A stretch of DNA of 64,000 bases from Lachnospiraceae bacterium. GTDB lineage: Bacteria; Bacillota; Clostridia; Lachnospirales; Lachnospiraceae. Position 1 is the first letter of the stretch. Every line of letters starts with the position of its first letter. Under the pieces are notes generated by a model that saw only the letters and a program-made list of their open reading frames with translations, made no database searches and was not told the DNA's origin. The DNA lies in NCBI GenBank assembly GCA_029008875.1, contig JAQXJP010000003.1:6710-70709 (forward strand). Reading direction: 5' to 3'. A program made the translations under genes and the position numbers. Positions 135-18,401 of the stretch are shown here, one piece after another.

Positions 135-161
135 GGATTTTATTTCAAGGAGGAAAATATT

Positions 162-968: not shown

Positions 969-1020
969 TTTAGGACAGTTACAACATCTGAGAAACAAAG
1001 TATTCGTACACAATACTAGG

Positions 1021-1050
1021 AAGGGAGCCATAGGATTCTATGGCTCCCTT
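1021..1050 (+). terminator. Intrinsic terminator-like hairpin after flagellin 1
   Basis: Perfect 13-bp stem AAGGGAGCCATAG / CTATGGCTCCCTT with a GATT loop. Confidence 0.75.
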
Positions 1051-1070
1051 TAACATATGAGGGTAAAATA

Positions 1071-1895: not shown

Positions 1896-1914
1896 AAAAA
1901 GTGAAAATAATAGG

Positions 1915-1941
1915 TTAAGAGAATAGAAATGTGTCCGATAT
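1915..1941 (+). promoter_or_regulatory. Sigma28/SigD-type promoter of flagellin 2
   Basis: TAAG (1916-1919), 14-nt spacer, TCCGATAT (1934-1941). Confidence 0.8.
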
Positions 1942-1951
1942 ATTGAGTGTA

Positions 1952-1968
1952 AAGCAAAGGATGTGCTT
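1952..1968 (+). promoter_or_regulatory. Candidate CsrA site in the flagellin 2 leader
   Basis: AAGCA-AAGGATG-TGCTT hairpin with GGA in the loop. Confidence 0.45.
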
Positions 1969-2062
1969 ACAGAGGGGCCGAAAGGAGACCGGTGCCTGGC
2001 CCTAAATAATTCAAAAATAACAAGAATAAGGATATGATTTTTTATTCAAGGAGGAAACCACT

Positions 2063-2869: not shown

Positions 2870-2900
2870 TTGGCACAAACAGCTTATTAAGCAAAATCCA

Positions 2901-2931
2901 AAGGGGATCACGGCATGTGGTCCCCTTTTTT
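2901..2931 (+). terminator. Intrinsic terminator after flagellin 2
   Basis: AAGGGGATCAC / GTGGTCCCCTT stem followed by a T run. Confidence 0.75.
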
Positions 2932-2964
2932 AAGTAGTAAGAGACAAAAGACAGGGGAAGCAAT

Positions 2965-4143
2965 ATGAATAAACCAATCCTTTCTATCTCCATTTTAATC
3001 TCCAATCATTATGAAAATGTAAAGCGCTGTCTGGATTCCGTAAGACCGCTCATGGATGCTGTCTCATCGGAACTGATTCTCACCGATACCGGGGTGGATG
3101 AAAGGGTGCGGGGGCTTTTGGAACAATATACCGACCACATTATCGACTTTACCTGGTGCCAGGACTTTTCTGCGGCGCGGAACGTGGGCCTTAGGGAGGC
3201 AAAGGGACATTGGTTTCTCTATATTGACGATGATGAATGGTTTGAGGATACAAAGGGCATTTCCGATTTCTTAAATTCTGCGGAAGAGCGTTCCTATAAT
3301 GTGGCGTTTTATACCCAGAGAAACTATCTCGATTTTGGAGGGGAGCACTATATCGATCATAAGGTGGATCGGTTATTGCGGATAACTCCACAGCTCCATT
3401 TTGAGCACAGAGTTCATGAAGCCTATACCGGCATTACCATTGGGCAGAAGAAAGTTTTGGATTGCTTTGTTCATCATTACGGCTATATCTATGCGAATGA
3501 ACAGGAAATGTTGAAAAAGCATAACAGGAATCAACAATTGCTGGAATTGGAGTGCAAGGAACATCCCAACGATATGCGCATGCAGTATCAACTCATTATG
3601 AATCAGTATGAAACCCAGGATTGGGATAAAGCCATCACATATGCTCTGTCTGCCATTCGGCAGAAAAGTGACTCGGAATTTTGGGATGCCTGCCACACTT
3701 CCATTCTGTATTGCCTTGAAAAAAAGCAGGATTGGAGCAGTCTCATCCAATATGGAGAAGAATTTCTAAAAAAGAAAATCTATCCTTTTGATCGGTTTGG
3801 AATATTACAGTTTCTGATAACTGCATATTGGAATGTGGGTGACCGAAAGAAGGTATGCGATTTGGGATCGGACGCTTTAGATTTATATACGCAGTATAAG
3901 AAAGATTCTTCCTTCTTTAACAGAAACCAATTAATGAGAACGGAGTTTGTGGAAAAAGAAAACATGACGTATATGTTAATTTATATGATAACAGCAGGTT
4001 TATGTCTGAACTGCTCCGATTTCATCACAGAATTAAGTACGGGTGTGACCGCAGCGGATGTTGCGGAGATTTTGGCGCAGCCATCCATCGAAAACTGGAT
4101 TGCGAGTCAGGTAAATTCCTACCAAATTAATGGCGGAATTTGA
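2965..4143 (+). CDS. GT2 glycosyltransferase with helical (TPR-like) C-terminus; candidate flagellin O-glycosyltransferase
   Basis: DTG...WCQDFSAARN...WFLYIDDDE...RVHE...HYGY motifs typical of flagellin-linked GT2s; lies directly after flagellin. Confidence 0.85.
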   Translation: MNKPILSISILISNHYENVKRCLDSVRPLMDAVSSELILTDTGVDERVRGLLEQYTDHIIDFTWCQDFSAARNVGLREAKGHWFLYIDDDEWFEDTKGISDFLNSAEERSYNVAFYTQRNYLDFGGEHYIDHKVDRLLRITPQLHFEHRVHEAYTGITIGQKKVLDCFVHHYGYIYANEQEMLKKHNRNQQLLELECKEHPNDMRMQYQLIMNQYETQDWDKAITYALSAIRQKSDSEFWDACHTSILYCLEKKQDWSSLIQYGEEFLKKKIYPFDRFGILQFLITAYWNVGDRKKVCDLGSDALDLYTQYKKDSSFFNRNQLMRTEFVEKENMTYMLIYMITAGLCLNCSDFITELSTGVTAADVAEILAQPSIENWIASQVNSYQINGGI

Positions 4144-5333
4144 GAGACAGACGGAGGATAAGAGGAATGCGAATACTTCTGTACGACTGGAATGAAAACT
4201 CCACCTATATCAATCGATGGGATATTAAACAAACTTTTTGTTCCCTTCATATAGATTTTGATACATTTCTGTTCGACTTTGAGAAGCAGGAGCAGGAGGA
4301 ATTGGTTCGCCTATTTTCTTCTTTTCAGATATCAAAATATGATTTTTGTTTTTCCATCAATTACTTTCCCGGAGTTTCGGAAGCTTGCATGGAAAATAAT
4401 ATAAAATATATCTCTTGGGGATATGATTGCCCGTTCAATGTGAAGAACATCGAAAGGACGTTGGGAAATCCTTGCAATTATGTGTTCTGCTTTGATCGGG
4501 TACAGGCGGAAGGATACATCAGACAAGGGTTTGATACGGTGTTCTATATGCCACTGGGAGTGAATGTCGATAGATACGAGAAAATAATGATCAGTTCCGA
4601 GTATTTGGCAAAATATGGAGGGGACATAAGCTTTATCGGTAGCCTGTACGAAGGACAATACTCTGCAATCGCTGAGGTGTGTGATGATTATCACAGAGGA
4701 TATCTGGAGGCAATCATTAACTCTCAACAGCAATTATACGGGGGATATATTCTGAATGATGCAATTTCCCAAGGGCTGGTGGATGAAATAAACAGGCATT
4801 TTAAGGAAGTGGAGAAAGATACAAAATTTTCACTGACCAAAGAACAATTGGTGCATGTGCTGGATCAGGAGACAAGCCGAAGAGAGCGCCTCCTACTGCT
4901 GACGCTTTTGGCCAGACGATTTGATGTGCATCTGTACTCTTATCAGGCATATCAGGGGCTGACGGGGGTAAAACTGCACGATGCGGTGGATTATGTTACC
5001 GAGATGCCGTATGTATTTGCCTCATCAAAGATTAATCTGAATATCAGCGTAAAAGGAATACAGTCGGGAATGCCTCAACGAACTTTGGACATTATGGCTA
5101 GTGGGGGCTTTTTGCTGTCGAATTTTCAACCGGAACTGGTGGAGTATTTCTCGTGCGGAGAAGATATGGAAACCTATTCCAGCATGGAGGAAGCGGTTGT
5201 AAAGAGTCGATTTTATCTCGAAAATCCTGATATAAGAGAGAGAATTGCAAAAAAAGGTCGGGAAAGAGTGTATCGGGAACACAACCTGAAGGACAAAATC
5301 TGTCAAATGATTGAGTTTTGCAAGGAGAATTAG
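4140..5333 (+). CDS. CgeB/DUF3880-type glycosyltransferase (probable start ATG 4167)
   Basis: YISWGYD, DISFIGSLY, SKINLNIS...QRTLDIMASGGFLLSNFQPEL motifs. Confidence 0.82.
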   Translation: MRDRRRIRGMRILLYDWNENSTYINRWDIKQTFCSLHIDFDTFLFDFEKQEQEELVRLFSSFQISKYDFCFSINYFPGVSEACMENNIKYISWGYDCPFNVKNIERTLGNPCNYVFCFDRVQAEGYIRQGFDTVFYMPLGVNVDRYEKIMISSEYLAKYGGDISFIGSLYEGQYSAIAEVCDDYHRGYLEAIINSQQQLYGGYILNDAISQGLVDEINRHFKEVEKDTKFSLTKEQLVHVLDQETSRRERLLLLTLLARRFDVHLYSYQAYQGLTGVKLHDAVDYVTEMPYVFASSKINLNISVKGIQSGMPQRTLDIMASGGFLLSNFQPELVEYFSCGEDMETYSSMEEAVVKSRFYLENPDIRERIAKKGRERVYREHNLKDKICQMIEFCKEN

Positions 5334-6504
5334 GATGAAGATACTGTTTATCGAATGGAATAGTCTATGCATTGCAGACGTGAAATCAGCCTTCGCAAAT
5401 CTGGGATATACATGGGAAGGTGTTGCAGCACCAAAAAAAGACAGGTTTGAACGGAATGAGGAATTTGAAGATCGGGTTGAGAAAAAGATAGTAGCGTACA
5501 AACCGGACTTTGTGTTCAGTATGAATTTTTTCCCAAGCGTATCCATTGTATGCAACAAAACCAATACGAAATATCTGTCCTGGATCTATGATAACCCCCA
5601 GACTTCCGCTTATCATATCAGTGTGAAAAATGAATGTAATTATGTGTTTTCCTACGACTCCCATATGGTGGAACAATTAAGGGGCAGGGGAGTTCCACAT
5701 ATTTATTATGCACCGATGGCTGTAAATGCGAGAAGGCTGCAAACATTGACTCCGGATCAGATGGATGAGGTAAAATATTCCTGTGACGTAGCGTTTGTGG
5801 GATCTTTGTACAACGAAGGGACTGACTATTACAGCATTATGCTCGCTAAGGCCAATGATCCCTATTTCACCGGATTTCTGGAAGGATTACTAAATTCACA
5901 GAAACTGGTCTACGGGTATAATTTTATGGCAGAGGTGTTGACGGCACCCATTGTTGAGAAATTTCGGGATTGTGCCAAGGATTTACTGCCGGAGGATTCC
6001 CTGCTCACAGAGAGGGAAATATATGCGGATGTATTTTTATCTCAGAAATTAGCGACCATCAATCGGATGGAATTGCTGTATATGTTAGGAAACTATTTTG
6101 ATGTCCATTTCTATACATACAACGAAAGCATGCTAGAAAACGTGAAGCACAGAGGCACTGTGAATTATGAATCAGAAATGCCTAGGCTGTTTCAGGTTGC
6201 AAAAATTAATTTGAATGATACCCGCCGGAGCAATAAAAATGGAATTCCTCTCAGAGCAATGGATATTATGGGATGCGGAGGCTTCTTGTTATCAAATTAT
6301 CAGGAGGATTTTTTCCGACATTTTGAGCCGGGGGTTCACATGGATATGTATGGCAGCCTCGAAGAAGCTGTTGATAAATGCGATTTTTATCTCAAACATG
6401 AAATAGAAAGAGAGCAAATCAAACAGAAAGCCAGAGAAATAATGGCGGCGGAACACACTTATGAGATTCGACTTGGGGAGATGCTAAAAACAGCAAAAAT
6501 TTGA
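5311..6504 (+). CDS. CgeB/DUF3880-type glycosyltransferase (probable start ATG 5335)
   Basis: YLSWIYD, DVAFVGSLY, AKINLND...LRAMDIMGCGGFLLSNYQ; paralog of the upstream gene. Confidence 0.82.
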   Translation: MSFARRIRMKILFIEWNSLCIADVKSAFANLGYTWEGVAAPKKDRFERNEEFEDRVEKKIVAYKPDFVFSMNFFPSVSIVCNKTNTKYLSWIYDNPQTSAYHISVKNECNYVFSYDSHMVEQLRGRGVPHIYYAPMAVNARRLQTLTPDQMDEVKYSCDVAFVGSLYNEGTDYYSIMLAKANDPYFTGFLEGLLNSQKLVYGYNFMAEVLTAPIVEKFRDCAKDLLPEDSLLTEREIYADVFLSQKLATINRMELLYMLGNYFDVHFYTYNESMLENVKHRGTVNYESEMPRLFQVAKINLNDTRRSNKNGIPLRAMDIMGCGGFLLSNYQEDFFRHFEPGVHMDMYGSLEEAVDKCDFYLKHEIEREQIKQKAREIMAAEHTYEIRLGEMLKTAKI

Positions 6505-8345
6505 ATGAAACGGAGAAGATGATGTTAGAGTTTTCAAAAGAGTTTTTTGAACGCGAAGAAAGAGACGGATTTGTCATTGAACCTATGATGAAAAGTGCAT
6601 GGGCAGCAAATCTGGAAGTGTTACATATAGTTGACAGAATCTGTAAGGAGCATGATATTCGCTATTTTGCTGATTGGGGAACGCTTCTTGGGGCAGTGCG
6701 TCATCACGGGTACATACCATGGGATGATGATATTGATATCTGTATGCTCCGGAATGACTATAAGAATTTTTGTAAAGTTATTGAAGAATATAGGGATGAA
6801 GTCGCATTACTAAATATAAAGACGGTAGAGGATTGGGGAGAAAAGGTCGATAAGGTTATAAATATTTCTGCATTCACAACAAATCGTCAAGAGATTAAAG
6901 AATATCATGGATTTCCATTTACAGCAGGGATTGATATTTTTGTGGTTGATTATGTTCCTCGCAACAAAAGCGAAGAAAACGCATGGTTGACTATTATGCG
7001 GTACATTTCAGCGGTAGGACATATTCGGGAAGAGATGGCCGATTTAGTACCAGAAGGCGAAGACTACAAAAAACTAAAAAGAGATGAAAAGGAAATGGTG
7101 GCGTTAATCCAGGAAATGACAAACGTAAAATTTTCTCGGCCAAATCCTTCTACTCAAGAACTGTTGCTGTTAAAGAATAGAATATGTAGCTTATATAAGG
7201 ATGAGGATGCAGACTTTTTGACACAGGCAGACTGTCTTGGACAGGGACGTGATTATTATTTGCCGAGAGAAGTGTATGCTGATGTAATTTGGATGCCTTT
7301 TGAAAATACTATGGTACCGGTGCCGGCAGGATACGAATTTTTACTTCTAAAAAAGTACGGGGATGACTATATGATACCGAGAAACGTTGGAGCGGGGCAT
7401 GATTATCCATTTTATAATATAGCAATTCGAGAAGTAGCAACGGTAAGAGGAGTGGAAGAAGAAGAAATTCGTCAACTGGCAACAAAAATCGGACCACAAT
7501 ATTATTCTAAATTTATTCATAAAACAACCCAAACATCGGTTTCATTTCCGGCTCCTTTTTTTGAAGAAGAGGAAATTGATGGAGTTATAGTAGGAGAAGA
7601 GAGAAAGAGAATCTGGGCTGCACAACTCGAAGTATACCTTGAAGTAAAAAGGCTGTGTGATGAGAATAATCTTAAACTGTATGTTATTGGAGATACACTT
7701 CAAGGTGCGATAAAAAGGAATGGATATCTTCCACTTTCGGAAGACTTCCATTTGGCAATGATGCGGCAAGACTATATGAAATTACTTCCAATCCTTCAAG
7801 AGGAATTGGATCCATGGTTCGATTATCGAAATATATACTCGCATGATGGGCATGAGGATATGCGTTGCTATGTCATCACAGATAGTTATTTATGTGACGA
7901 GAACGAATACAAGAAGCGCTTTCATGGATGTCCACATATTGTGGGGGTGGATATTGCATCAATTGATGGGATATCCGAGGAGCCCGCGAAAGAAGAACTC
8001 CGAAAGAATTTGATTCAGAATCTGCTTAAGACTGCAAAGAGTATGCCGTTCAATCCGCCATATACTCAAGAGGTAATCAACATAATTAAAGAGTGGAAGG
8101 AATTAACAGCAATTGAGGTAGATGTCAATAATAATTTGAGACGGGAATTTGTGAAAGCAGCGGATGCTGTGGCAGGAGCATATCGAGGGGAATGCGAGAA
8201 TGTGCGTATTTCAGCCAATCTGCAGGAGGGAAAAGATACAGTTTATAAAAAGAAATGGTTTTATGATACAATGACAATAAAGTTTGAAGGCATCGAAATA
8301 CAGGTGCCGGTAGGGTACAGAGAGATTGGGGAGAACGAGTGTTAA
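6501..8345 (+). CDS. licD: LicD-family phosphotransferase with two LicD repeats, the second degenerate
   Basis: N-half has WGTLLGAVRHHGYIPWDDDIDI; C-half has GDTLQGAIKRNGYLPLSEDFHL. Confidence 0.85.
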   Translation: MNETEKMMLEFSKEFFEREERDGFVIEPMMKSAWAANLEVLHIVDRICKEHDIRYFADWGTLLGAVRHHGYIPWDDDIDICMLRNDYKNFCKVIEEYRDEVALLNIKTVEDWGEKVDKVINISAFTTNRQEIKEYHGFPFTAGIDIFVVDYVPRNKSEENAWLTIMRYISAVGHIREEMADLVPEGEDYKKLKRDEKEMVALIQEMTNVKFSRPNPSTQELLLLKNRICSLYKDEDADFLTQADCLGQGRDYYLPREVYADVIWMPFENTMVPVPAGYEFLLLKKYGDDYMIPRNVGAGHDYPFYNIAIREVATVRGVEEEEIRQLATKIGPQYYSKFIHKTTQTSVSFPAPFFEEEEIDGVIVGEERKRIWAAQLEVYLEVKRLCDENNLKLYVIGDTLQGAIKRNGYLPLSEDFHLAMMRQDYMKLLPILQEELDPWFDYRNIYSHDGHEDMRCYVITDSYLCDENEYKKRFHGCPHIVGVDIASIDGISEEPAKEELRKNLIQNLLKTAKSMPFNPPYTQEVINIIKEWKELTAIEVDVNNNLRREFVKAADAVAGAYRGECENVRISANLQEGKDTVYKKKWFYDTMTIKFEGIEIQVPVGYREIGENEC

Positions 8346-9316
8346 TTTTTGATGAAAGTTATTTTGCCGAAGAAGAACGAGATGGATTTGTTATCTCATC
8401 AATGATGAAGCGCGTGTGGGCGGCACAGATTTGCGTGCTTGAGGAGGTTCGTCGTGTGTGCGAGATGCTTCACATTCCATTCTTTGCAGATTGGGGAACC
8501 TTACTTGGAGCTGTGCGACATCATGGCTTTATCCCATGGGATGACGATATGGATATATGTATGTTGCGCAAGGATTATATGCGCTTTTTGGAGGCGGCAC
8601 CGGAAATTCTAAAGCCTCCTTTTGAAATAAAAAGCGTGTACAACGATCCCACCGATGATATAATAAAAGCAAGAATCATTAACGGGCGGCATATGAACTT
8701 TGAACAGGACTTTTTGGAGCAGTTTTATGGATGCCCATATGTGGTGGGAATTGACATCTTTCCGATTGATAACATTACCGAAGATCAAAAGCAATTAGAG
8801 GAACAGATACGGACGTTGCGCTTTGTCTTAAAGGCAGCAGCCAGTGTTCCGGAGGAACCGCCATATGAGGACGATGTACTTGAGCTTTTGCAGCAGATTG
8901 AGAATACCTTCGGATTTGCAATAGATTACAACAATCGTCCGGCACATGAGCTAAAGAAGCTCTATGATATTCTCTGCAGTTGGTATATGCATGAGGATAC
9001 TAAGGAAGTGACCTCGATGATTGATTTGGCCAATGGCTGGGATTATCATGCAAAGAGGGCATGGTTTTCTGAGATTATTGAGATGCCCTTTGAGAACACC
9101 ACAATACCAGTACCGGCGGGTTACGATGGTCTGCTTTGCATTAAGTATGGAAAAGATTATATGACACCGAGACAGGTCAGCTCACACGAGTATCCATTTT
9201 TCAAGGAACAGATGCTTGGCCTAAAGGAGGTTATGGAGGAAGAATTCCAGACACAGTTGTCCGAAGAACAAATGTATCAGCTGATTGAAATGAAAGCGTT
9301 GGGGACAGCTTTCTAA
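8339..9316 (+). CDS. licD: LicD-family phosphotransferase
   Basis: WGTLLGAVRHHGFIPWDDDMDI, GIDIFPID, FE...PVPAGYD motifs. Confidence 0.88.
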   Translation: MLIFDESYFAEEERDGFVISSMMKRVWAAQICVLEEVRRVCEMLHIPFFADWGTLLGAVRHHGFIPWDDDMDICMLRKDYMRFLEAAPEILKPPFEIKSVYNDPTDDIIKARIINGRHMNFEQDFLEQFYGCPYVVGIDIFPIDNITEDQKQLEEQIRTLRFVLKAAASVPEEPPYEDDVLELLQQIENTFGFAIDYNNRPAHELKKLYDILCSWYMHEDTKEVTSMIDLANGWDYHAKRAWFSEIIEMPFENTTIPVPAGYDGLLCIKYGKDYMTPRQVSSHEYPFFKEQMLGLKEVMEEEFQTQLSEEQMYQLIEMKALGTAF

Positions 9317-9330
9317 AACAGGAGGGACAA

Positions 9331-10680
9331 ATGAAAAAGGTCATTACCTATGGAACATATGATTTATTTCATGAAGGTCATTACAAACTGTTAGAGCGGG
9401 CAAAGGCATTAGGGGATTATCTGATTGTTGGGGTAACAACCGAGCATTTTGATGAAGCCAGAGGCAAGGTGAATGTGGTGGACTCCATTATGGAACGTAT
9501 TGAAAATGTTCGTAAAACCGGATTTGCCAATGAGATTATTGTGGAGGATCACGAGGGTCAGAAAATTGAGGATATTCAAAAATATGGGGTGGATATCTTT
9601 GTGCTCGGCTCTGATTGGAAAGGACATTTTGACTATCTAAAGCCATACTGCGACGTCGTATATCTGGAGAGAACGGCGAATGTCTCCTCTACTATGATTC
9701 GCAAGGAGAAATTTCCAATCGTAAGAGTGGGAATCGTTGGTACAGGGAGAATTGCACCGAGATTTGTTGCTGAGGCAAAGTATGTCAGTGGAGTACAGAT
9801 AGAGTGTGCATACAATCCCGAGAAGATTAGTGCATTGCGCTTTGGACAGCGGGAGGAAATCCCTGTATATAGTAATGACATGGAGGAATTCTGGCAACGC
9901 ACGGATGCCATCTATATCGGATCTCCGAATGAGACACATTATACGTATGCGAAAGAGGCTCTTCTTCATGGGAAACATGTATTAAGTGAGAAGCCACTGG
10001 CATTTACGCATAGTGAGACAATGGAATTGTATCAGATGGCAAAGGATAAAGGCCTTGTGCTGATGGAGGGAATAAAAACCGCATACTGTCCGGGATTTCA
10101 ACAGCTAATTAATGTGGCCAAGAGTGGAAAAATCGGGGAAATCCGAGATATCGAAGCCTGCTTTACAAGACTTGCGACAGATGGCTCCAGAGAGCGGTCG
10201 GACGCAAAATATGGCGGTTCCTTTTTAGAGTTTGCTCCTTATACGCTGCTCCCCATTTTTAAGCTATATGGAACTGAATATGAGGATGTTCAGATTGACA
10301 GTATTCTGGGGGAGGATGGCATTGACCTATATACAAAGATTCAACTCCGTTATGCGAATGGTATGGCGACAGCCAAGATGGGAGTCGGAGTAAAGTCAGA
10401 GGGGGAGCTTGTGATTGCAGGAACGGAAGGGTACATCCTTGCGCCGTCTCCGTGGTGGCTGACGCATAAGTTCGACGTGCGAAGAGAGGACCCGACGGAC
10501 ATTGAGCATTTTGAACCATCTTTTCAGGGAGATGGTCTGAGATATGAGATCAGCGAATTTGTCGGAAAAATAAATGGTGCCGGAAGAAAAGACTACAAGC
10601 TTACCGAGGAAGAATCAATTGCAATGTCAAGAATCGTGGAGTTGTTCATGAGTAAACGAAGCGGAGATAGGATGAAATGA
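9331..10680 (+). CDS. TagD-like cytidylyltransferase fused to a Gfo/Idh/MocA oxidoreductase
   Basis: N-terminal ITYGTYDLFHEGH (HxGH) and YLERTANVSST; then VGIVGTGRIA and HVLSEKP. Confidence 0.88.
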   Translation: MKKVITYGTYDLFHEGHYKLLERAKALGDYLIVGVTTEHFDEARGKVNVVDSIMERIENVRKTGFANEIIVEDHEGQKIEDIQKYGVDIFVLGSDWKGHFDYLKPYCDVVYLERTANVSSTMIRKEKFPIVRVGIVGTGRIAPRFVAEAKYVSGVQIECAYNPEKISALRFGQREEIPVYSNDMEEFWQRTDAIYIGSPNETHYTYAKEALLHGKHVLSEKPLAFTHSETMELYQMAKDKGLVLMEGIKTAYCPGFQQLINVAKSGKIGEIRDIEACFTRLATDGSRERSDAKYGGSFLEFAPYTLLPIFKLYGTEYEDVQIDSILGEDGIDLYTKIQLRYANGMATAKMGVGVKSEGELVIAGTEGYILAPSPWWLTHKFDVRREDPTDIEHFEPSFQGDGLRYEISEFVGKINGAGRKDYKLTEEESIAMSRIVELFMSKRSGDRMK

Positions 10681-12464
10681 TAAGATTCGGAATGATTGGT
10701 ACAGGTCGAATTGCACAACGATTTGCGAAGGACATTTTGATGACACAGGATGCAATGCTGACCTGCGTCTATAATCCCCATGAGAATAGCGCAGAAAAAT
10801 TTGTATCTGCATATTGCAAAGAATATAGTGTTGAAAAAATTCCAATTGCAACAATGGATTTGCAGGTATTATGGAATCAGTGTGATGCAGTATATATCGC
10901 TACCCCTCACGAGACACACTATGTGTATGCAAAGTCCGCTCTTGAAGCAGGAAAACATGTATTGTGCGAAAAACCGATGACCCTTGTACTAGATGAGGCA
11001 GAGGAATTGTTTGCTCTGGCAAAGAAGAATGGACTTGTCCTTCGAGAGGCAGTAAAGACTTCTTACTGTCCGGGATTTCTTAAGCTGTTGGAAGTAGCGC
11101 AAAGTGGTGTGATTGGGGAAATCTGCGATGTGGAGGCGGCGTTTACAAAGCTGGAGAGTACCTGCAATCGGGAATTCGTGGATATCAAAACCGGTGGAAG
11201 CGTAGCAGAACTGGGGGCATATTGTATGCTTCCGATTTTTAAATTAATGGGGTGCAATTATTCAGGAGTACAGGCACAATCTATTCATGCACCGAATGGT
11301 GTAGATAAATATACAAAGTTGATATTTACCTACGAAAATGGAATGGCAACTGCCAAGATGGGACTTGGTGTTAAGTCAGAAGGACAGTTGCTTATCTCAG
11401 GGACAAAAGGCTATATTTTGGCAGAGTCCCCATGGTGGCTGACGAAAAAATTTGAAGTGCGATATGAAAATCCGAATCAAAAAGAAAGGTATGAATTTGA
11501 CTATCTGGGTGCAGGCCTAATCTATGAAATCATAGGATTTATTCGAGACTGTGAAGGAGAACCAATTGGAGCCGGTGTTACAGAAGAAGAGACGCTAAGT
11601 GCAGTTTATGTAATTGAGCAGTTTCTTCAGGCGGATGTACCACTTAGAAAAGTTGCATCAGAGCAAGAGAAAGCGAGAGTGGGTATTTGGGCGCATCGTG
11701 GTATGTGTATGAAATACCCACAAAACACGCTGCTTGCTTTTGAAGAAGCAGCAAAGATTCCAGGAGTAAAGGGAATCGAACTGGATGTACAACTATCAAA
11801 AGATGGTCAGGTTGTGGTATTTCATGATGAGACATTAGGAAGAATTACGACCTGTGAAGGCAAACTAAAGGATTATACGCTTGAGGAACTGCGACAGATT
11901 CCAATGAGGGGTGTAAATGAAGAACTGTATCCGGATAAAAGCAGAGTTCGTATTCCAACGCTAGAAGAAGTTTTGGAATTGTTAAAGCCTTATTGCAAAA
12001 AAAATAATATAATGATTAATATCGAACTAAAGACTAGTGTCATTCATTATGAGGGAATCGAAGAAAAAACGCTGGAACTGGTTAAAAAGCATAACCTAGA
12101 AGCATATGTTATTTATTCTTCATTCTGGGCTGAGTCTGTAAAGAAAATGAAAGAACTGGATGCCTCTTGTAAGACCGGCATGCTTGCAACATACTTAAGC
12201 GATTGCATCAAATGGGGCGATTATGCAAACGCAGATGCGCTTCATCCAAGTATAGGCGGTTTGGATTGTGATGTGCCGGAGCGCTGGAGAGGCAAACCGA
12301 TTCGAGCATGGAATGGAATAGAGCCGTTTTTCCCAGAAGATAAGAAATCAGGGAATATGGATTTACTGGAATTCGCTTTGTGGGGTGTGACGGACGTGTT
12401 CACGAATGTGGCGGATACCTTGACAAAACCAGTAAAAAGTAGTAAAAGAAAAGTAAACCAGTAA
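10677..12464 (+). CDS. Gfo/Idh/MocA oxidoreductase fused to a glycerophosphodiester phosphodiesterase (GDPD) domain
   Basis: IGTGRIA and HVLCEKP; C-terminal WAHRG...PQNTL...IELDVQLSKDGQVVVFHD...INIELK. Confidence 0.88.
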   Translation: MIRFGMIGTGRIAQRFAKDILMTQDAMLTCVYNPHENSAEKFVSAYCKEYSVEKIPIATMDLQVLWNQCDAVYIATPHETHYVYAKSALEAGKHVLCEKPMTLVLDEAEELFALAKKNGLVLREAVKTSYCPGFLKLLEVAQSGVIGEICDVEAAFTKLESTCNREFVDIKTGGSVAELGAYCMLPIFKLMGCNYSGVQAQSIHAPNGVDKYTKLIFTYENGMATAKMGLGVKSEGQLLISGTKGYILAESPWWLTKKFEVRYENPNQKERYEFDYLGAGLIYEIIGFIRDCEGEPIGAGVTEEETLSAVYVIEQFLQADVPLRKVASEQEKARVGIWAHRGMCMKYPQNTLLAFEEAAKIPGVKGIELDVQLSKDGQVVVFHDETLGRITTCEGKLKDYTLEELRQIPMRGVNEELYPDKSRVRIPTLEEVLELLKPYCKKNNIMINIELKTSVIHYEGIEEKTLELVKKHNLEAYVIYSSFWAESVKKMKELDASCKTGMLATYLSDCIKWGDYANADALHPSIGGLDCDVPERWRGKPIRAWNGIEPFFPEDKKSGNMDLLEFALWGVTDVFTNVADTLTKPVKSSKRKVNQ

Positions 12465-12510
12465 AAAGTAGTAAAAGAACGAAAAACCAGTAAAGAGTAG
12501 TAGAACGAAC
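12426..12510 (+). repeat. Three tandem 29-bp direct repeats
   Basis: AAACCAGTAAAAAGTAGTAAAAGAA at 12426 and 12455 (25 nt identical) and a degenerate copy at 12484. Confidence 0.9.
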
Positions 12511-12520
12511 AGGGGCAGGT

Positions 12521-13558
12521 ATGAAAAATCCATATTCTATGGTATTTGGAAAAGAGCCGGAATTGCTTATTTCACGTGCAGCGCAATTTAATATGGTAGT
12601 GCGGGACTTCACTGAGGAAAATCCTCCGTATCAGACATATCTCATTACCGGGGTTCGAGGATCCGGCAAGACAGTTATGATGACAGATCTTGCAAATCAT
12701 TTCCGTAAGCTTGAAGATTGGGTTGTAGTAGAACTCAATCCGGATAGGGACCTCCTGAACAGTTTGGCGGCGAATTTGGCCAGTAACCAGAAATTTGCGC
12801 AGATTTTCCAAAATGCAAAATTGAATTTGTCATTTTGGGGGTTTGGATTAGAAATAAGTGGAGTAACGCCTATTACGGATATCGAGGTGGCATTGCGTCA
12901 GATGATTGCAAACCTGGGCAAGCACAATAAGAAGATCTTGATCACAATCGATGAGGTGACGAATAATTCAAACATTCGAGCCTTTGCCAGTGCTTTTCAG
13001 ATTATGGTGAGGCAGGAACTTCCGGTGTTCCTTTTAATGACGGGCTTGTACGAAAATATCAATGCCATACAGGATGAGAAAAATCTGACTTTTTTGTATC
13101 GCTCGCCGAAGTTGGAGATGAAATCATTAAATATTGGGATGATTGCGGAAAAGTATCAAATCACTCTTGAGGTGCCATATGAGGATGCACTTGAAATGGC
13201 CAAGTGCACCAAGGGATATCCCTTTGCTTTTCAGGTGCTAGGGTATCTGACATGGGAGAATCGGGGAAACTATAAGAAAGTATTGCCTGAGTATAGACAG
13301 TACTTGGAAGAGTATGTTTATGAGAAAATATGGTCTGAGTTATCGGTAAAGGATAGGCAGATAGCGTATGGGATTGCAAATTGTTCATCCGGTAAAATTA
13401 AAGAAATTCGAGCATGGTTGCAAATGGAAACAAACGCATTTAACCCATATAGGAAACGGATGATTAAGAAAGGGATCATTGATGGAAGTGCATATGGTGT
13501 TGTAAAATTTACGCTTCCTTTTTTTGAACGATTTGTACTTGAAAATTATGAAGAATAA
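12521..13558 (+). CDS. Stand-alone AAA/ATP-binding protein with probable C-terminal winged helix
   Basis: Walker A GVRGSGKT, Walker B ILITIDE, LLMTGL; C-terminal ...YRKRMIKKGII...FTLPFF. Confidence 0.8.
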   Translation: MKNPYSMVFGKEPELLISRAAQFNMVVRDFTEENPPYQTYLITGVRGSGKTVMMTDLANHFRKLEDWVVVELNPDRDLLNSLAANLASNQKFAQIFQNAKLNLSFWGFGLEISGVTPITDIEVALRQMIANLGKHNKKILITIDEVTNNSNIRAFASAFQIMVRQELPVFLLMTGLYENINAIQDEKNLTFLYRSPKLEMKSLNIGMIAEKYQITLEVPYEDALEMAKCTKGYPFAFQVLGYLTWENRGNYKKVLPEYRQYLEEYVYEKIWSELSVKDRQIAYGIANCSSGKIKEIRAWLQMETNAFNPYRKRMIKKGIIDGSAYGVVKFTLPFFERFVLENYEE

Positions 13559-14675
13559 TGGGTTATTTCAAATGGGAGAGAAAATGTTAGCAGGAGTACA
13601 GTATAATGCCCCATTAAGCTTGGAGGCAATTGCAGACGCAGGATTTTCCTATGCGGAAATTCCTTACGAGGTGATAGAAGGAGAGGGGCTTCCGACCTAT
13701 GAGAAGAAGGAGGGGGAGAACCGCCTGTTGCGCGTATCAGGCTTTTTGTATCCACTACAGAAGCTGACGCCGGAAAAGCTGTATGAGATACTTGAGGCAT
13801 GCAAAGCATACCAGGGAAACTATATTGTTCTTGAAACCATGAACTGTGAATCGGGAATCTTCGAGGAAGTGGTAGAAGAATGCTATGGTATGATAGAAGA
13901 TTTTGGAATACCGATTTTTCTGGAAAATGGATGCCAGGGAGACGATGCATCCGGGTATGTACATAATGAATATTCGGATGTAACAGGCTTGATTCGGAGT
14001 GCAAATTTCTGTAATCGCTTATGCGACCGACCTATGGTTGGGATTTGTTATAATATCGGATATGGCAACCTCCTTGCAAAGAATATACGAAGTCAACTCT
14101 ATCAGTGTCGCGAGTATCTGTGCATGGTTCATGCCAATGACAATGGCGGACGGTACAATGACAAGCAGATGCCATATACATTTACAAAGGGTAGGGGTGA
14201 TTTGGTAACCGACTGGTATCACATTGTGGGGGAACTTATCCGTATGGATTTTCAAGGGTGGATGATTTTTGACACCACAGGACTGTTTGCAAGATGTCCG
14301 AAGAAACTTCAGACATCGTTTATGCGTATCCAGAATGCACTTGTACGGGAGTGGGAAAGTCAGTATACATTTGCAGAGCGCGTGCTGGGCAAGCCTGATA
14401 AGAAGTTGATTCTATTTGGCGCGGGACAGATGCTTGTGGATTATATGCGGGAGTTTGGAGAAGAGTACCCCCCGTATTTTGCTGTAGATAACGTACAGTC
14501 GAGATGGAACACCGAATACATGGGAGTACCAATTAAAAGTCCAAACGAGATTTTGCAGGTCCCAGAGGAAGAACGAAATGTAGTCATCTGTTGTATGTAT
14601 TATGATGCGATTGGTGCACAGCTGCGAGAAATGGGCGTGGAATATGAAGAATTCCACGATCGATATTATGTATAG
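13524..14675 (+). CDS. Xylose-isomerase-like TIM barrel (sugar-phosphate isomerase/epimerase) with C-terminal Rossmann-like domain; true start probably 13548 or 13572
   Basis: IFLENG, GICYNIG, VHANDN, WMIFD; C-terminal KLILFGAG...FAVDN. Confidence 0.7.
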   Translation: MNDLYLKIMKNNGLFQMGEKMLAGVQYNAPLSLEAIADAGFSYAEIPYEVIEGEGLPTYEKKEGENRLLRVSGFLYPLQKLTPEKLYEILEACKAYQGNYIVLETMNCESGIFEEVVEECYGMIEDFGIPIFLENGCQGDDASGYVHNEYSDVTGLIRSANFCNRLCDRPMVGICYNIGYGNLLAKNIRSQLYQCREYLCMVHANDNGGRYNDKQMPYTFTKGRGDLVTDWYHIVGELIRMDFQGWMIFDTTGLFARCPKKLQTSFMRIQNALVREWESQYTFAERVLGKPDKKLILFGAGQMLVDYMREFGEEYPPYFAVDNVQSRWNTEYMGVPIKSPNEILQVPEEERNVVICCMYYDAIGAQLREMGVEYEEFHDRYYV

Positions 14676-14690
14676 GATAGGAAAACAAGT

Positions 14691-15611
14691 ATGATAGATG
14701 TAGGAGTACAGACAAAAGGCATATTGCCGGAGATGGGAATAGAGGAGGGTGTGGCATTCATTGCTGCTGCAGGGTTTGAGAGAGTAGATTTTAACCTGGA
14801 CGCTTTCCTAAAAAACTCGGATATCTATACCGGCAAGATCAATTCGTTCTTCGACGCTGATTTAGATGTAATGCTTGCCTATTTTGGTGAGTATAAAAGG
14901 ACATTTGAAGCCTATGGAATCAAACCATCGCAGATGCATGCACCTTATCCGATTTTTGTGCCGAATAGACCCGATGTGACCGATTACATGCAGAAGGTTG
15001 TAATTCCAAAGAGTATTGCAATTGCAGGACAGATGGAGATTCCGTGGGTAGTTATGCATCCATTTAAGCTACAATACAAGTTTGGAGTGGATGTGGAGCG
15101 TGCAATGAACCTGCAATATTTTCAATCGCTTATTCCGTTGCTTAAGGAGCATCATGTGGGTGTATGTGTAGAGAATCTGTATGAAAGTATAGGTGGAAGA
15201 ATTACAGAGGGCACATGCGCGGACCCAGAGGAAGCAATCTGGTATGTGGATACGCTGAATGCGCTTGCCGGAGAGGAACTGTTTGGAATATGTCTTGATA
15301 CGGGACATATGGAACTGGTTCGAAGAACGCCTTCCGAGTATATCCGTCAGGTGGGAAGTCGACTTAAGATTATGCACCTCCATGAAAACGATGGAGTTGG
15401 GGATTTGCACCAGATGCCGTATACCTTTGGAAGCAAGCCAGAGGATGGGGTGGACTGGAAGGAATTCAGAAAAGCATTAAGTGAAATAAGCTTTGATGGA
15501 ACACTAAGCTTCGAGACGTTTCCATGCATGAATAGCTTTCCGAGAGGTGCCAGGGAAGACGTGCTGAGGACGATAAAAGAGATAGGAACTTGTATTGGCG
15601 GATCAAACTAG
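14691..15611 (+). CDS. Sugar-phosphate isomerase/epimerase (AP_endonuc_2 TIM barrel)
   Basis: Metal-ligand motifs VCVENL, ICLDTGH, MHLHEND, LSFET. Confidence 0.85.
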   Translation: MIDVGVQTKGILPEMGIEEGVAFIAAAGFERVDFNLDAFLKNSDIYTGKINSFFDADLDVMLAYFGEYKRTFEAYGIKPSQMHAPYPIFVPNRPDVTDYMQKVVIPKSIAIAGQMEIPWVVMHPFKLQYKFGVDVERAMNLQYFQSLIPLLKEHHVGVCVENLYESIGGRITEGTCADPEEAIWYVDTLNALAGEELFGICLDTGHMELVRRTPSEYIRQVGSRLKIMHLHENDGVGDLHQMPYTFGSKPEDGVDWKEFRKALSEISFDGTLSFETFPCMNSFPRGAREDVLRTIKEIGTCIGGSN

Positions 15612-15616
15612 AGAAT

Positions 15617-15827
15617 ATGAGAAGTCATATTGATAATGCAACTGTGCTTGAAATTAATATATGGGATGTTAATTTAGCAAATAGAATACCTGATTAATAA
15701 AATGAATTATAGGCCAGAGTCTATTCCGGCAAATGGAGAATTATGGGAAGAAATCGACTTTGTAGATGACCATGAGAGGGTATATAGTCAAATTTCAGGG
15801 GAACTGGTAAGAATCGCAAGGCAGTAA
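15617..15827 (+). pseudogene. Remnant resembling the C-terminus of a LicC-like NTP-transferase
   Basis: Short frame 15702-15827 encodes ...GELWEEIDFVDDHERV..., matching the W-x-EID-x3-D tail of nucleotidyltransferases; the upstream part is broken by stops. Confidence 0.4.
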
Positions 15828-15842
15828 AGAGAGGAAATAGTA

Positions 15843-17114
15843 TTGTTAGAGCATACAGTGGCAATCAAATCTCAAGAAATCAAATACCTAAAGAAGAGAA
15901 AAAGAAAAGCTACAATAGAAAAGCTGTGCTTTTATGTTTGTAGAGTATTTCCCATAAAAAAGAACCTTATTAGTGTATGTACATTCGAGGGAAAAGGAGG
16001 ATTTGGTTGTAATGCTAAACCGTTAGTGAAAAAAATACATGAAACGAAACCGGAATGCGAGTTCGTATGGTTTGTCAATGATAGGAATAAAGAATTTCCT
16101 GATTATATAAGAAAAGTACCTAATTCCTTATGGAGTAGAGCATATTGGCTTTCTAGATCAAAGGTGTGGATTGATAATTATAGAAAACCATTGGGAACTT
16201 GTAAAAGAAAAGGACAATACTATTTGAATGTTAACCATTATACCATAGGCATAAAATGTACAGGTTTATTAAGAGGAGAAGGTTTTTCAGAAATGGCATA
16301 TTTAGTCAGTAAAAATGACTCGGATATGATTGATAATTTGGTTATAGATTCAAACTGGTGTGAACAGTGTTTTGATAAGGCATTAGTATATGAAGGAACA
16401 TTTTTAAAGACAGGAGCACCAAGATGTGATGTTTTATATGGTGAACGAACCAGAATGAAAGAGCAATTTCGCATAAAATATGGATTGCCAGATGATGCAA
16501 AAGTTGTAATGTTTGCACCGACATTTCGAGAAGATGCTAAAAATGGTGTTCGAAGTGTATATTCAGAGATTTGGACGATAGATTTTAAAAGACTTATTCA
16601 TAATTTAGAAAAAAAATTTGGCGGGCAATGGTATGTTTGTGTAAGGGTACATCCACAGCTGGCACCTACATTTAGTGAATATAAGAATTCTAAAATACAA
16701 GACAGACTAATAGATGAAAGTCAGGCTGATGATATGTATGAGATACTAGCAGCGATGGATGCATATATTACAGATTATTCTAGCGCATGTTTTGAAGCCG
16801 GATTTGCACATATTCCTGTATTTATCTATGCAGATGATATACAAAAATATGCAAAGGATAGAGGCGCACTAATGTGGAATATTTCATCCGATCCACGATA
16901 TGACGTGAGAAACAACAAAAAGTTTACGCCAATGTTGAATATTCAATTTCCATTTTCAATTGCAAGTAATAATGAACAGTTACAACAGAATATATTGGAA
17001 TTCAATCAGAATGAATACAATAAAAAATTAGATGTATTTTGTGGTAAGGTTGGACTGGTGTTTGATGGGAATGCAAGTGGGAAAATAGCTGATGTAATAG
17101 CCAAATATATTTGA
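15843..17114 (+). CDS. CDP-glycerol glycerophosphotransferase (TagB/TagF family)
   Basis: WIDNYR, KGQYYLN, TGAPRCD, MFAPTFR, YITDYSS motifs. Confidence 0.85.
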   Translation: MLEHTVAIKSQEIKYLKKRKRKATIEKLCFYVCRVFPIKKNLISVCTFEGKGGFGCNAKPLVKKIHETKPECEFVWFVNDRNKEFPDYIRKVPNSLWSRAYWLSRSKVWIDNYRKPLGTCKRKGQYYLNVNHYTIGIKCTGLLRGEGFSEMAYLVSKNDSDMIDNLVIDSNWCEQCFDKALVYEGTFLKTGAPRCDVLYGERTRMKEQFRIKYGLPDDAKVVMFAPTFREDAKNGVRSVYSEIWTIDFKRLIHNLEKKFGGQWYVCVRVHPQLAPTFSEYKNSKIQDRLIDESQADDMYEILAAMDAYITDYSSACFEAGFAHIPVFIYADDIQKYAKDRGALMWNISSDPRYDVRNNKKFTPMLNIQFPFSIASNNEQLQQNILEFNQNEYNKKLDVFCGKVGLVFDGNASGKIADVIAKYI

Positions 17115-17144
17115 TAAACATAGTGGTAAGAAATGGTATAAAAG

Positions 17145-18401
17145 ATGAAAAAAGTGTATTTATTTGGAGCAGGAACCGCTGCATATGGGGTTATTTCATA
17201 TGTTGGGAAAGAAAATATTATTGCTGTGATAGACAATAAAGAAAAACTACAAGGGGATAATATATTAGATGTTCCTATAATATCGTTTGAAAAGTTTTTG
17301 AATGAAAACGACGATGAGGAAATTGTTATTACGGCAGCAATATGTGAAAGTATAGTTGAGCAACTGAAAAAAAATAAGATAAATAATTATAGTTTGGCAC
17401 CATTAGTTACAATGGGGAATATTTTTAACCCAGAACAGATTCTAGAGAGATGCAGAAATAAGGAGGAAATATTTGTTCTAGGAGACGATATAGTTATGCG
17501 GAAATTTTGTGATTATATGGAAAGTAATCACAAGGAATGTATGGTAAACGTTCTTCCAAGAGAATTTGGACAGATGGAAGTGCCGGAAAATGCAGAATTG
17601 CTTATTTTTGGAGAATTATTGGATGAAGCAGAGAAAAAGATACTAGAAAAATATAGGAGTAAGAAATTTGTATATGACTTTAAAGATAATCATAGATATA
17701 ATAACCTTGAAAAATACAATAATCTGCACAAGGGGGAAAAATGTTTCATTGTTGGTAATGGCCCAAGTTTACGGATGAGTGATTTAGAAATAATACAAAA
17801 AAGTAATATTTGTAGTTTTGGATTTAACTTAATTTACAATATATATGAAGATACTAGTTGGAGAGCCTCGTACATAGTTATTGCAGACTATACCGTTTAC
17901 AGAGCTTATTATGATGACTTTGTAAGACAAGCTTCACCGAAAATGTTTATTAAGGATTTTTATTCAATTGAAGGGACCCCTCGAATTGACGGCGTAAATT
18001 ATTATCCCGCTAGTGCATATAGATTGTACAATGATAGGCAAAAGTTTTCTTCGGATATAACTCGAAATGTGAATGGAGCTTATACTGTAATGTACGATGC
18101 AATTCAAATTGCAATATATATGGGGTTTAAAGAGATATACTTAATAGGAGCAGATTTTAGTTATTCAAAGGATCCAGTGCAAGATGGTAATCACGTGTAT
18201 GATGGTAAGATAAAAGATAGAAGAAAAGCAGTAGGCGAGTATTATCTTGATGTGTCATTTAATGCATTTAAAAAAGCTCGGGAATATGCTGATGCACATG
18301 ATATAAAAATAATTAATACTACAAGAGGTGGTAATTTGGAAATTTTTGAAAGAAAAAATATAGATGAAGTATTTGAGGAGATTGAAAACAGTGATATGTA
18401 A
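17145..18401 (+). CDS. Maf/DUF115 (MAF_flag10-like) protein with N-terminal Rossmann-like domain
   Basis: HKGEKCFIVGNGPSL, IAIYMGFKEIYLIGADFSY, NTTRGGNLEIF. Confidence 0.82.
   Translation: MKKVYLFGAGTAAYGVISYVGKENIIAVIDNKEKLQGDNILDVPIISFEKFLNENDDEEIVITAAICESIVEQLKKNKINNYSLAPLVTMGNIFNPEQILERCRNKEEIFVLGDDIVMRKFCDYMESNHKECMVNVLPREFGQMEVPENAELLIFGELLDEAEKKILEKYRSKKFVYDFKDNHRYNNLEKYNNLHKGEKCFIVGNGPSLRMSDLEIIQKSNICSFGFNLIYNIYEDTSWRASYIVIADYTVYRAYYDDFVRQASPKMFIKDFYSIEGTPRIDGVNYYPASAYRLYNDRQKFSSDITRNVNGAYTVMYDAIQIAIYMGFKEIYLIGADFSYSKDPVQDGNHVYDGKIKDRRKAVGEYYLDVSFNAFKKAREYADAHDIKIINTTRGGNLEIFERKNIDEVFEEIENSDM

Follow-up and report, generated by a model that had tools for sequence, protein, structure and literature searches.

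In the type A system of C. difficile (FgtA, FtaABCD) and the b-type system of P. aeruginosa, a phospho head group conjugated to cytidine diphosphate (CDP) is transferred in the cytoplasm to a flagellin sugar by enzymes encoded beside fliC (10.64898/2026.02.12.704994; PMC10714395). Here we describe a gene block, likewise placed beside flagellin genes, at positions 6501-15611 (+ strand) of a 64,000-nucleotide (nt) stretch of DNA from a gut Lachnospiraceae bacterium (GCA_029008875.1, contig JAQXJP010000003.1, positions 6,710-70,709, forward strand); the whole stretch is called the window. In order, the block encodes two LicD-family phosphotransferases (LicD_long and LicD_short), a TagD-like cytidylyltransferase (CT) domain fused to a Gfo/Idh/MocA (GFO) oxidoreductase domain (CT::GFO), a second GFO domain fused to a glycerophosphodiester phosphodiesterase domain (GFO::GDPD), an AAA ATPase, and two xylose-isomerase-like TIM barrels (TIM1 and TIM2). 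The C. difficile and P. aeruginosa systems use an NTP_transferase-fold cytidylyltransferase, a TagF-like transferase, and an N-methylthreonine head group, whereas the block has a TagD-type cytidylyltransferase fused to GFO, uses LicD, and shows no HAD phosphotransferase or methyltransferase step.

With the TagD/TarD teichoic acid system, the block shares 45-48% full-length identity of the cytidylyltransferase, the HxGH and RTxxxSST motifs, and a product used by CDP-alcohol phosphotransferases; it differs in being oxidoreductase-fused, in scoring below the curated cut-off, in its predicted protein-glycan acceptor, and in having LicD instead of TagF. LicD-family enzymes (Fukutin and FKRP) and a PF01467-type cytidylyltransferase also cooperate on alpha-dystroglycan, where, with PCYT2 or ISPD, glycerol or ribitol phosphate is placed on a protein O-glycan (PMC8587909); that mammalian system is eukaryotic, operates in the secretory pathway, and has no GFO, GDPD, or TIM partners. 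The O-glycans of P. gingivalis bear HexNAc-P-glycerol (PMC8729774). Bcs1, TarI/TarJ, and C. jejuni HS5.18/HS5.17 have a common design, in which a cytidylyltransferase and an NAD(P)H oxidoreductase, either coupled or in one fused protein, together yield a CDP-alditol (PMC10918830). These systems combine IspD-family enzymes with short-chain or medium-chain dehydrogenases/reductases (SDR/MDR), whereas the block joins the TagD family to Gfo/Idh/MocA, which would make it a third case of such recruitment, independent of the other two; a Pfam scan of the block found no PF01128, SDR, or MDR domain. The pneumococcal CDP-2-glycerol pathway makes a non-standard glycerol-phosphate donor by means of the Gtp1 reductase, Gtp3 phosphotransferase, Gtp2 cytidylyltransferase, and WchX (PMC1391919; gene order, PMC5581491), and we liken the block to it by pathway logic alone, not by sequence. 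The block resembles these known surface decorations in function and differs from each in enzyme membership. Its gene set is conserved and uncharacterised, and most likely represents a novel version of an already known type of surface decoration rather than a new type of system. Our literature searches found no paper characterising the CT::GFO fusion, which databases name only "Gfo/Idh/MocA family oxidoreductase" or "glycerol-3-phosphate cytidylyltransferase".

A LicD and cytidylyltransferase cassette that recurs beside flagellin genes

On balance, we read the block as a module that acts on flagellin after glycosylation, in which a glycerol-derived three-carbon (C3) phospho head group would be CDP-activated, transferred by LicD, and supplied or trimmed by phosphodiesterases. 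There is good support for a CDP-alcohol pathway that supplies LicD with a donor for transfer to the flagellin glycan. For the head group, we favour a glycerol-derived C3 unit, on which the two intact GFO domains may carry out redox tailoring, over plain glycerol phosphate.

We infer the following order of steps. Glycosyltransferases encoded upstream would first put an O-glycan on flagellin in the cytoplasm; the upstream GT2 and DUF3880/CgeB-like enzymes probably lay down this acceptor. The TagD-like domain would then join cytidine triphosphate (CTP) and the phosphate of a small primary alcohol, most likely sn-glycerol-3-phosphate or a C3 relative, into a CDP-alcohol, from which the two competent LicD domains would move the phospho head group to sugar hydroxyls of the flagellin glycan, with release of cytidine monophosphate (CMP). 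The paralogous GFO domains probably form a heteromer and may carry out an NAD(P)-dependent tailoring of the C3 unit, for example, oxidation at C2 and then re-reduction or further conversion. GDPD would serve as a cytoplasmic phosphodiesterase, either drawing glycerol-3-phosphate from glycerophosphodiesters for the pathway or taking off misplaced head groups for reuse. TIM2, together with the degenerate TIM1, might act as a metal-dependent phosphodiesterase of the endonuclease IV/CbiR type and trim or edit a phosphodiester. An initial annotation of the window had already suggested editing or recycling, and we find such a role for the phosphodiesterases plausible.

The block is real as a unit and not a chance neighbourhood, as LicD, CT::GFO, GFO::GDPD, TIM1, and TIM2 recur beside flagellin genes in many gut Clostridia. 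The minimal cassette of Lachnospira (loci L001-L003) consists of fliC, fliC, GT2, LicD, CT::GFO, and GFO::GDPD. Locus L005, whose CT::GFO is 81% identical to that of the window, carries fliC, LicD_long, LicD_short, CT::GFO, a stand-alone GFO, LicD, and an aminotransferase. The full set of CT::GFO, GFO::GDPD, TIM1, and TIM2 is present again in L087-L094, where TIM1 identity falls to as little as 38%; in L093 and L094, the TIM pair is placed ahead of GFO::GDPD. Directly after fliC, LicD precedes CT::GFO in L089-L094 (at the contig start in the cut contigs L090 and L094). Neither LicD nor a flagellin gene was found in the stretch examined of L087 and L088. The cassette directly follows fliC, FliD, and FliS in L001, L005, L089, L091, and L093. 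Furthermore, we observed proteins elsewhere in which the same parts are fused (CT::GFO::GDPD, Metallophos::CT::GFO(::GDPD), CT::CT::GFO, GFO::Metallophos, LicD::GFO::GDPD, and GFO::GDPD::LicD), suggesting that the parts of the block are functionally linked. The metallophosphoesterase domain fused to CT::GFO in some of them gave marginal matches only (best PDB match 2nxf, E=0.0094).

More than 8000 database clusters scored for CT::GFO at E<=1e-10. A scan of one genome per species found at least 594 places that encode a relative, and we examined the best 80, counting neighbours by single-sequence searches. CT::GFO was found in Bacillota, Bacteroidota, Actinomycetota, Verrucomicrobiota, and Methanobrevibacter; the best 80 loci came from Lachnospiraceae, Oscillospiraceae, Selenomonadaceae, Paenibacillus, Bacteroidales, Akkermansia, Actinomycetota, Fibrobacter, and Methanobrevibacter. 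A LicD or TagF gene lay within 6 kb of CT::GFO at 53 of the 80 loci and a GDPD or metallophosphoesterase gene at 22, whereas a second GFO (five loci), a TIM pair (four to five), or a flagellin gene within 10 kb (seven) was seen at few. The general rule is CT::GFO with a CDP-alcohol phosphotransferase, and these counts suggest that the flagellin version with two GFO domains, GDPD, and the TIM pair is an elaboration of Clostridia. Its spread is patchy: among Lachnospiraceae sampled at one genome per genus, the GFO type occurred in 14 of 201 genomes and GFO::GDPD in two or three.

The initial annotation had placed a module for CDP-alcohol synthesis and LicD transfer in a flagellin glycosylation island and had set co-occurrence in other genomes beforehand as one of its checks. 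With the parts co-occurring widely and fused in other genomes, the proposal came through this check. Its gene calls also held: CT::GFO and GFO::GDPD lie on the + strand where it had put them (open reading frames (ORFs), Pfam, and NCBIfam), and both xylose-isomerase-like barrels were recovered, TIM2 by Pfam and TIM1 by AlphaFold2, Foldseek, and hhalign. The two licD genes are both present, but the first encodes two LicD domains, so that the block has three. The annotation had described the block as compositionally uniform, in agreement with a G+C content of 0.39-0.43 at 6-16 kb versus 0.32-0.35 at 16-30 kb. It had also called the block a tightly overlapping run, which is true of the start/stop overlaps of 4-7 nt at 6501, 8339, and 10677, but it overlooked the ATPase gene and a 56-nt repeat gap that interrupt the run. 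Overall, the earlier mechanism was right in outline, while its chemistry (a cyclitol or polyol, and epimerase barrels) was probably wrong.

Both licD genes exceeded the Pfam LicD (PF04991) cut-off of 22.6 bits, and the C-terminal half of LicD_long scored alone still reached 64.2 bits. The two halves of LicD_long are 25% identical to each other, and the N-terminal and C-terminal halves are 38% and 32% identical, respectively, to LicD_short, whose start overlaps the end of LicD_long by 7 nt. The acidic DxD-type metal motif (WDDDxD) is kept in the N-terminal domain of LicD_long and in LicD_short; the C-terminal domain of LicD_long reads SEDFH instead, leaving two of the three LicD domains with an intact motif. 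These two are presumably active. The SEDFH domain (within 7491-8345) is probably non-catalytic and may have a role in acceptor binding or scaffolding. That these LicD enzymes would use a CDP-alcohol and release CMP is suggested by the genes of the cytidylyltransferase module, which lie next to LicD or are fused to it.

In the human gut, the flagellins of Lachnospiraceae are major antigens and ligands of innate immunity, and to our knowledge hardly any work has addressed their glycans. A negatively charged phospho head group, if present on them, would alter charge, antigenicity, and phage or antibody recognition. CT::GFO is so widespread that one biochemical study would annotate thousands of genes.

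The cytidylyltransferase domain and the nature of the head group

The CT domain of CT::GFO, a gene with an AGGAGG ribosome-binding site at its 5' side, is over its full length 48% identical to B. subtilis TagD (1coz) and 45% identical to S. aureus TarD (2b7l). The alignment with 1coz spans residues 1-126, and both family motifs are in place, HEGH at residues 14-17 (HxGH) and RTANVSST at 114-121 (RTxxxSST, the counterpart of RTxGISTT in the TagD/TarD family). Ethanolamine- and choline-phosphate cytidylyltransferases were far weaker matches (E=6e-15 and 7e-7). Because the CT domain is far closer to TagD/TarD than to other cytidylyltransferase classes, an ordinary or lightly modified glycerol phosphate is likelier than a rare polyol or cyclitol; the unusual head group that the initial annotation had proposed does not sit well with such whole-length identity. 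GDPD enzymes such as GlpQ liberate sn-glycerol-3-phosphate (PMC7086022), which also fits a glycerol-type head group. We also observed that the CT residues are near-invariant family-wide, even in distant members with decayed GFO motifs, suggesting that the cytidylyltransferase takes a common, available small phospho-alcohol.

Both GFO domains keep GTGRIA (GxGxxA), EKP, and E-x3-Y, and these motifs are intact across this clade. In the most distant family members, the Rossmann motif and EKP are both gone, while the cytidylyltransferase domain is invariant. The orthologues from Bacteroidota and Akkermansia (L058-L086) have E[T/I]P in place of EKP, so that the lysine is lost, and keep the Rossmann motif and E-x3-Y. 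A 1316-aa (amino acid) protein, P0210, is made up of four Gfo/Idh/MocA units in tandem, which are relatives of the GFO domains of the block. The GDPD domain shows the catalytic motifs AHRG, IELDV, and FHDE in its translation, exceeded the Pfam cut-off of 23.6 bits, and aligned to PDB 2pz0 (E=2.6e-33) and 5t91 over residues 335-584; it scored under the UgpQ and GlpQ equivalog cut-offs of NCBIfam.

The identity to TagD could also be taken at face value. The product would then be ordinary CDP-glycerol only, the fusion would be this lineage's TagD, the GFO domains would act as scaffolds, GDPD would perform a UgpQ-like salvage, and the TIM pair and the ATPase would be passengers. We judge this unlikely. 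It would fit the stand-alone TagDs of Bacilli, which are 43-52% identical to the CT domain; our sample of 401 Bacilli genomes held four full fusions and ordinary stand-alone TagDs, and no closely related unfused GFO. No stand-alone TagD was found in the genome of the window, and in Actinomycetota loci the fusion is joined by partners of the TagF type, the arrangement known from glycerol teichoic acid synthesis. The behaviour of the oxidoreductase domains can be read both ways: their motifs are degenerate in distant members, but the two GFO paralogues retain all cofactor and catalytic motifs across the clade, and L005, where GDPD proved dispensable, retains the second GFO. In addition, CT::GFO, GFO::GDPD, TIM1, and TIM2 are kept together down to 38% identity, though their order differs in L093. 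The intact GFO motifs, the presence of GpsA, and a second TagD-like gene at 8 of the 80 loci argue against plain CDP-glycerol. A role of GFO in supplying glycerol-3-phosphate for a lacking GpsA was considered and rejected, as the genome has GpsA.

Several observations weigh against a glycerol-derived head group and the module as we read it. The CT domain scored 107.6 bits for TIGR01518, under the TagD equivalog cut-off of 165.4 bits (NCBIfam), and falls outside the pair of TagD and TarD, which are themselves ~70% identical, so that a different small phospho-alcohol is possible. The separate TagD-like gene, which lies beside CT::GFO at the 8 loci, hints at a fusion product other than CDP-glycerol. 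With GpsA encoded in this genome, plain glycerol-3-phosphate requires neither GFO nor GDPD, and the retention of both is unexplained if the product is ordinary CDP-glycerol. The operon structure is deduced from gene spacing alone; promoter and terminator scans over positions 1-19000 gave no more sites than shuffled sequence. For TIM2, which we take to be a phosphodiesterase, the top Foldseek matches are ketose 3-epimerases, and also UlaE and YcjR (TM ~0.65-0.71, 14-18% identity); endonuclease IV is absent from the 50 Foldseek matches listed, and a profile search of PDB with TIM2 failed to recover it.

The score under the TagD cut-off and the second TagD-like gene at 8 of the 80 loci would equally suit a larger head group. 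GFO could reduce a C4-C6 keto- or aldo-sugar phosphate (for example, erythrose-4-P, ribulose-5-P, or xylulose-5-P), after which CT would make a CDP-polyol, after the pattern of Bcs1 or TarI/TarJ, and LicD would transfer a tetritol-, pentitol-, or hexitol-phosphate. This corresponds to the polyol part of the initial annotation's proposal. The intact GFO motifs of this clade point the same way, and the CHOH-CH2-O-P terminus of D-sugar phosphates resembles glycerol-3-phosphate. CDP-ribitol synthase is known to be built as a fusion of cytidylyltransferase and reductase, and a comparable pair makes CDP-6-glucitol; however, the characterised CDP-alditol cytidylyltransferases are all IspD-type (PF01128) and not TagD-type (PMC10918830). 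Related islands already hold modules of IspD, ADH, and Rpe, or of IspD and an epimerase, with their own TagF, where another donor of a pentitol or hexitol would be superfluous. The loss of GFO motifs in distant members with an invariant CT is also hard to square with an obligatory reductase step. We thus give this route a low probability and regard larger polyols as a weaker option than the glycerol-derived C3 unit.

The TIM barrel pair

AlphaFold2 models of TIM1 and TIM2 (pLDDT 94.4 and 82.9) are both xylose-isomerase-like barrels; TIM2 scored above and TIM1 below the AP_endonuc_2 (PF01261) cut-off of 31.1 bits. TIM1 most likely starts at 13584, which gives it the length of its homologues, rather than at a TTG at 13524. 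Its Foldseek matches are ketose 3-epimerases, YcjR, and UlaE. The hhalign comparison of TIM1 with TIM2 gave 99.9% probability with ligand substitutions, most of the endonuclease IV-type metal ligands being replaced in TIM1; judged by this alignment, TIM1 is a distant, degenerate paralogue of TIM2. A small Rossmann-like domain of ~90 aa lies at the C-terminal end of TIM1. Homologues of TIM1 carry PF01261 and, over this domain, PF22674, although a Pfam scan of the last 103 residues of the window's TIM1 did not pick up PF22674. We also observed that this C-terminal domain (14364-14675) matches, at ~30% identity across 120 residues, an inner part of the 756-aa orthologue, at locus L095, of a 783-aa cytidylyltransferase fusion encoded farther along the window, consistent with a small Rossmann-like module common to many enzymes of the island.

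TIM2 has H83, H123, E161, D203, H206, H229/H231, D238, H240, and E275, a complete ligand set of the endonuclease IV-type trinuclear site, and its motifs MHAPY, HPF, VEN, LDTGH, HxHEND, DLHQ, and FET are invariant in orthologues down to 40% identity. They correspond to those of this genome's own Nfo (AHAPY, FHPG, LET, FDTCH, HFND, DRHQ, and LET); hhalign aligned the first five motifs, and the other two were paired by eye. The motif set is also present in MJ1311 (PDB 3wqo), a protein of unknown function. The best NCBIfam match of TIM2 was CbiR, at 36.8 bits (cut-off 105), with Nfo at 20.2 bits (cut-off 333), both below their cut-offs. CbiR is a phosphodiesterase of the AP endonuclease 2 superfamily (PMC7733943). 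With endonuclease IV, CbiR, and MJ1311, TIM2 shares the motifs HAPY, HP, E, DxxH, H, DxH, and E (CbiR: PMC7733943); unlike endonuclease IV and CbiR, it lies in a glycan-decoration context rather than among genes for DNA repair or cobamides, has a degenerate paralogue as its partner, and scores far below the cut-offs.

A cyclitol route, the other option of the initial annotation, would assign the barrels a different task. GDPD would free inositol or its phosphate, GFO and the TIM barrels would oxidise, epimerise, and reduce it in the manner of IolG/IolI or YcjS/YcjR, and LicD would transfer the head group of a CDP-cyclitol. Pairs of GFO and AP_endonuc_2 enzymes are typical for the epimerisation of inositols and keto-sugars, weak NCBIfam matches to IolG, IolE, and IolO were seen, and YcjR and ketose epimerases are among the Foldseek matches. 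All four epimerase-type single-metal ligands (Glu-Asp-His-Glu) are also present in TIM2. However, the match to D-tagatose 3-epimerase begins at profile position 140, past the two N-terminal His motifs, so the extra, endonuclease IV-type motifs of TIM2 are unaligned in it, and TIM1 is degenerate. The pair is also lacking in the minimal cassettes (L001-L003) and follows a cytidylyltransferase fusion without a GFO domain at L095. TagD-family enzymes use small primary-alcohol phosphates. Known CDP-inositol synthases are built on another nucleotidyltransferase fold (PMC12275187). We therefore regard the cyclitol route as very improbable and a cyclitol head group as unlikely. A reading of the barrels as sugar epimerases from the Foldseek ranking alone had been entertained and was down-weighted once the endonuclease IV ligand motifs were seen. 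The oxidation-epimerisation-reduction scheme of the initial annotation, which needed epimerase barrels, is likewise disfavoured: TIM2 has nine endonuclease IV-type ligands and CbiR as its best curated match, TIM1 has lost most of its ligands, and the pair is dispensable to the minimal cassettes and can stand beside a GFO-less fusion.

At L095, a pair like TIM1 and TIM2 directly follows the 756-aa orthologue, which is 45% identical to the window's 783-aa fusion (BLASTP); no GFO, GDPD, LicD, or TagF gene was found within ~8 kb on either side of it. The TIM pair thus follows TagD-type cytidylyltransferase fusions of two unrelated architectures and appears to move between two different cytidylyltransferase modules. 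After the pair at L095 (L095:5726-11622) comes the same DUF3990 two-gene module as behind the 783-aa gene region (window 30158-34616). We reasoned that TIM2 may be a metal phosphodiesterase tied to TagD-type CDP-alcohol modules generally, with TIM1 as a putative non-catalytic partner.

A bolder version of our reading, which we advance only tentatively, has two parts. CT::GFO and its GFO partner could form a self-contained route to a CDP-C3 head group that central metabolism does not supply, with CDP-dihydroxyacetone, the enantiomeric CDP-sn-1-glycerol (via C2 oxidation and re-reduction), or CDP-glycerate as products that may be made, and TIM1/TIM2 could be a new enzyme class, which may act on glycan phosphodiesters or CDP-alcohols as an editing phosphodiesterase or even a transferase. 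If true, this could mean a new CDP-activated donor or a new role in glycobiology for endonuclease IV-like barrels.

The surrounding island and the inserted ATPase

The first 33 kb of the window form a flagellin glycosylation island with a run of + strand genes (ORFs and Pfam; Table 1). Its flagellin genes enclose glycosyltransferases of the GT2, GT4, and DUF3880/CgeB types, a Maf-like gene, methyltransferases, and sugar-activation genes.

Table 1. Coordinates of the block and of selected island genes in the window (positions in nt unless marked aa)
Feature	Position	Strand	Evidence or remark
Flagellin gene 1	162-968	+	Intact; Pfam
GT2 gene	1071-1895	+	Pfam
Flagellin gene 2	2063-2869	+	Intact; Pfam
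GT2 gene	2965-4143	+	Pfam
DUF3880/CgeB-like glycosyltransferase	4140-5333	+	Pfam
DUF3880/CgeB-like glycosyltransferase	5311-6504	+	Pfam
LicD_long, tandem double-LicD phosphotransferase, 614 aa	6501-8345	+	Pfam LicD 182.5 bits, two stretches
LicD_long, N-terminal LicD domain	~6642-7361	+	Motif WDDDID
LicD_long, C-terminal LicD domain	~7656-8327	+	Degenerate SEDFH
LicD_short, single-domain phosphotransferase, 325 aa	8339-9316	+	Pfam LicD 119.2 bits; WDDDMD intact
CT::GFO fusion, 449 aa	9331-10680	+	CTP_transf_like 65.5 bits; GFO_IDH_MocA 85.9 bits; GFO C-terminal domain
TagD-like cytidylyltransferase domain of CT::GFO	aa 1-128, 9331-9714	+	
Gfo/Idh/MocA domain of CT::GFO	aa 131-449	+	GxGxxA, EKP, E-x3-Y intact
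GFO::GDPD fusion, 595 aa	10677-12464	+	Pfam GFO 102.3 bits, GDPD 112.9 bits; ATGA overlap with CT::GFO
GFO domain of GFO::GDPD	aa 1-325	+	49% identical to GFO domain of CT::GFO
GDPD domain	aa ~335-590	+	HRG, ELD, HD motifs
AAA/P-loop ATPase, 345 aa	12521-13558	+	AAA_14 29.7 bits; ATPase_2 and AAA_16 below cut-off
TIM1, xylose-isomerase-like TIM barrel, 363 aa	13584-14675	+	Fold; AP_endonuc_2 29.4 bits (below cut-off)
TIM2, AP_endonuc_2 TIM barrel, 306 aa	14691-15611	+	Pfam 69.2 bits
TagF-type CDP-alcohol phosphotransferase	15843-17114	+	Pfam Glyphos_transf 173 bits
783-aa multidomain protein with second TagD-type cytidylyltransferase domain at C terminus	30158-32509	+	CTP_transf_like 66 bits
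Flagellin gene 3, truncated	32606-33604	-	

The 56-nt gap before the ATPase gene holds AGTAAAA-rich tandem repeats, which also code for the C-terminal end of GFO::GDPD. Genes for ATPases, or pieces of such genes (AAA_14 with DUF4143, and AAA-ATPase_like), come close behind TIM2 in three loci (L089, L090, and L092) and stand upstream of LicD in L013, and L001, L005, L087, L091, and L093 are without an ATPase gene. The ATPase looks like a recurrent passenger at cassette edges, and in the window it is probably an inserted passenger gene and not a pathway enzyme.

Downstream of the block, a 231-nt gap separates TIM2 from the TagF-type gene, and the G+C content drops at 16 kb. The TagF-type gene opens a compositionally distinct, lower-GC second module of the island, whose TagF-type enzyme is probably served by a different donor.

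In related islands, we observed other modules beside the cassette, consisting of IspD, an alcohol dehydrogenase (ADH), ribulose-phosphate epimerase, and TagF (CDP-ribitol type) or of IspD, an SDR-epimerase, and TagF (CDP-hexitol type). They lie at L087:11149-14235, L089:12784-16462, and L091:14017-16989, and Stealth-family genes are carried there too. It seems common in these bacteria for a flagellin glycan to carry several phosphodiester decorations. Beyond the island, ORFs of 1322 and 1276 aa from ~40.8 kb of the window are, by size and position, presumably rpoB and rpoC.

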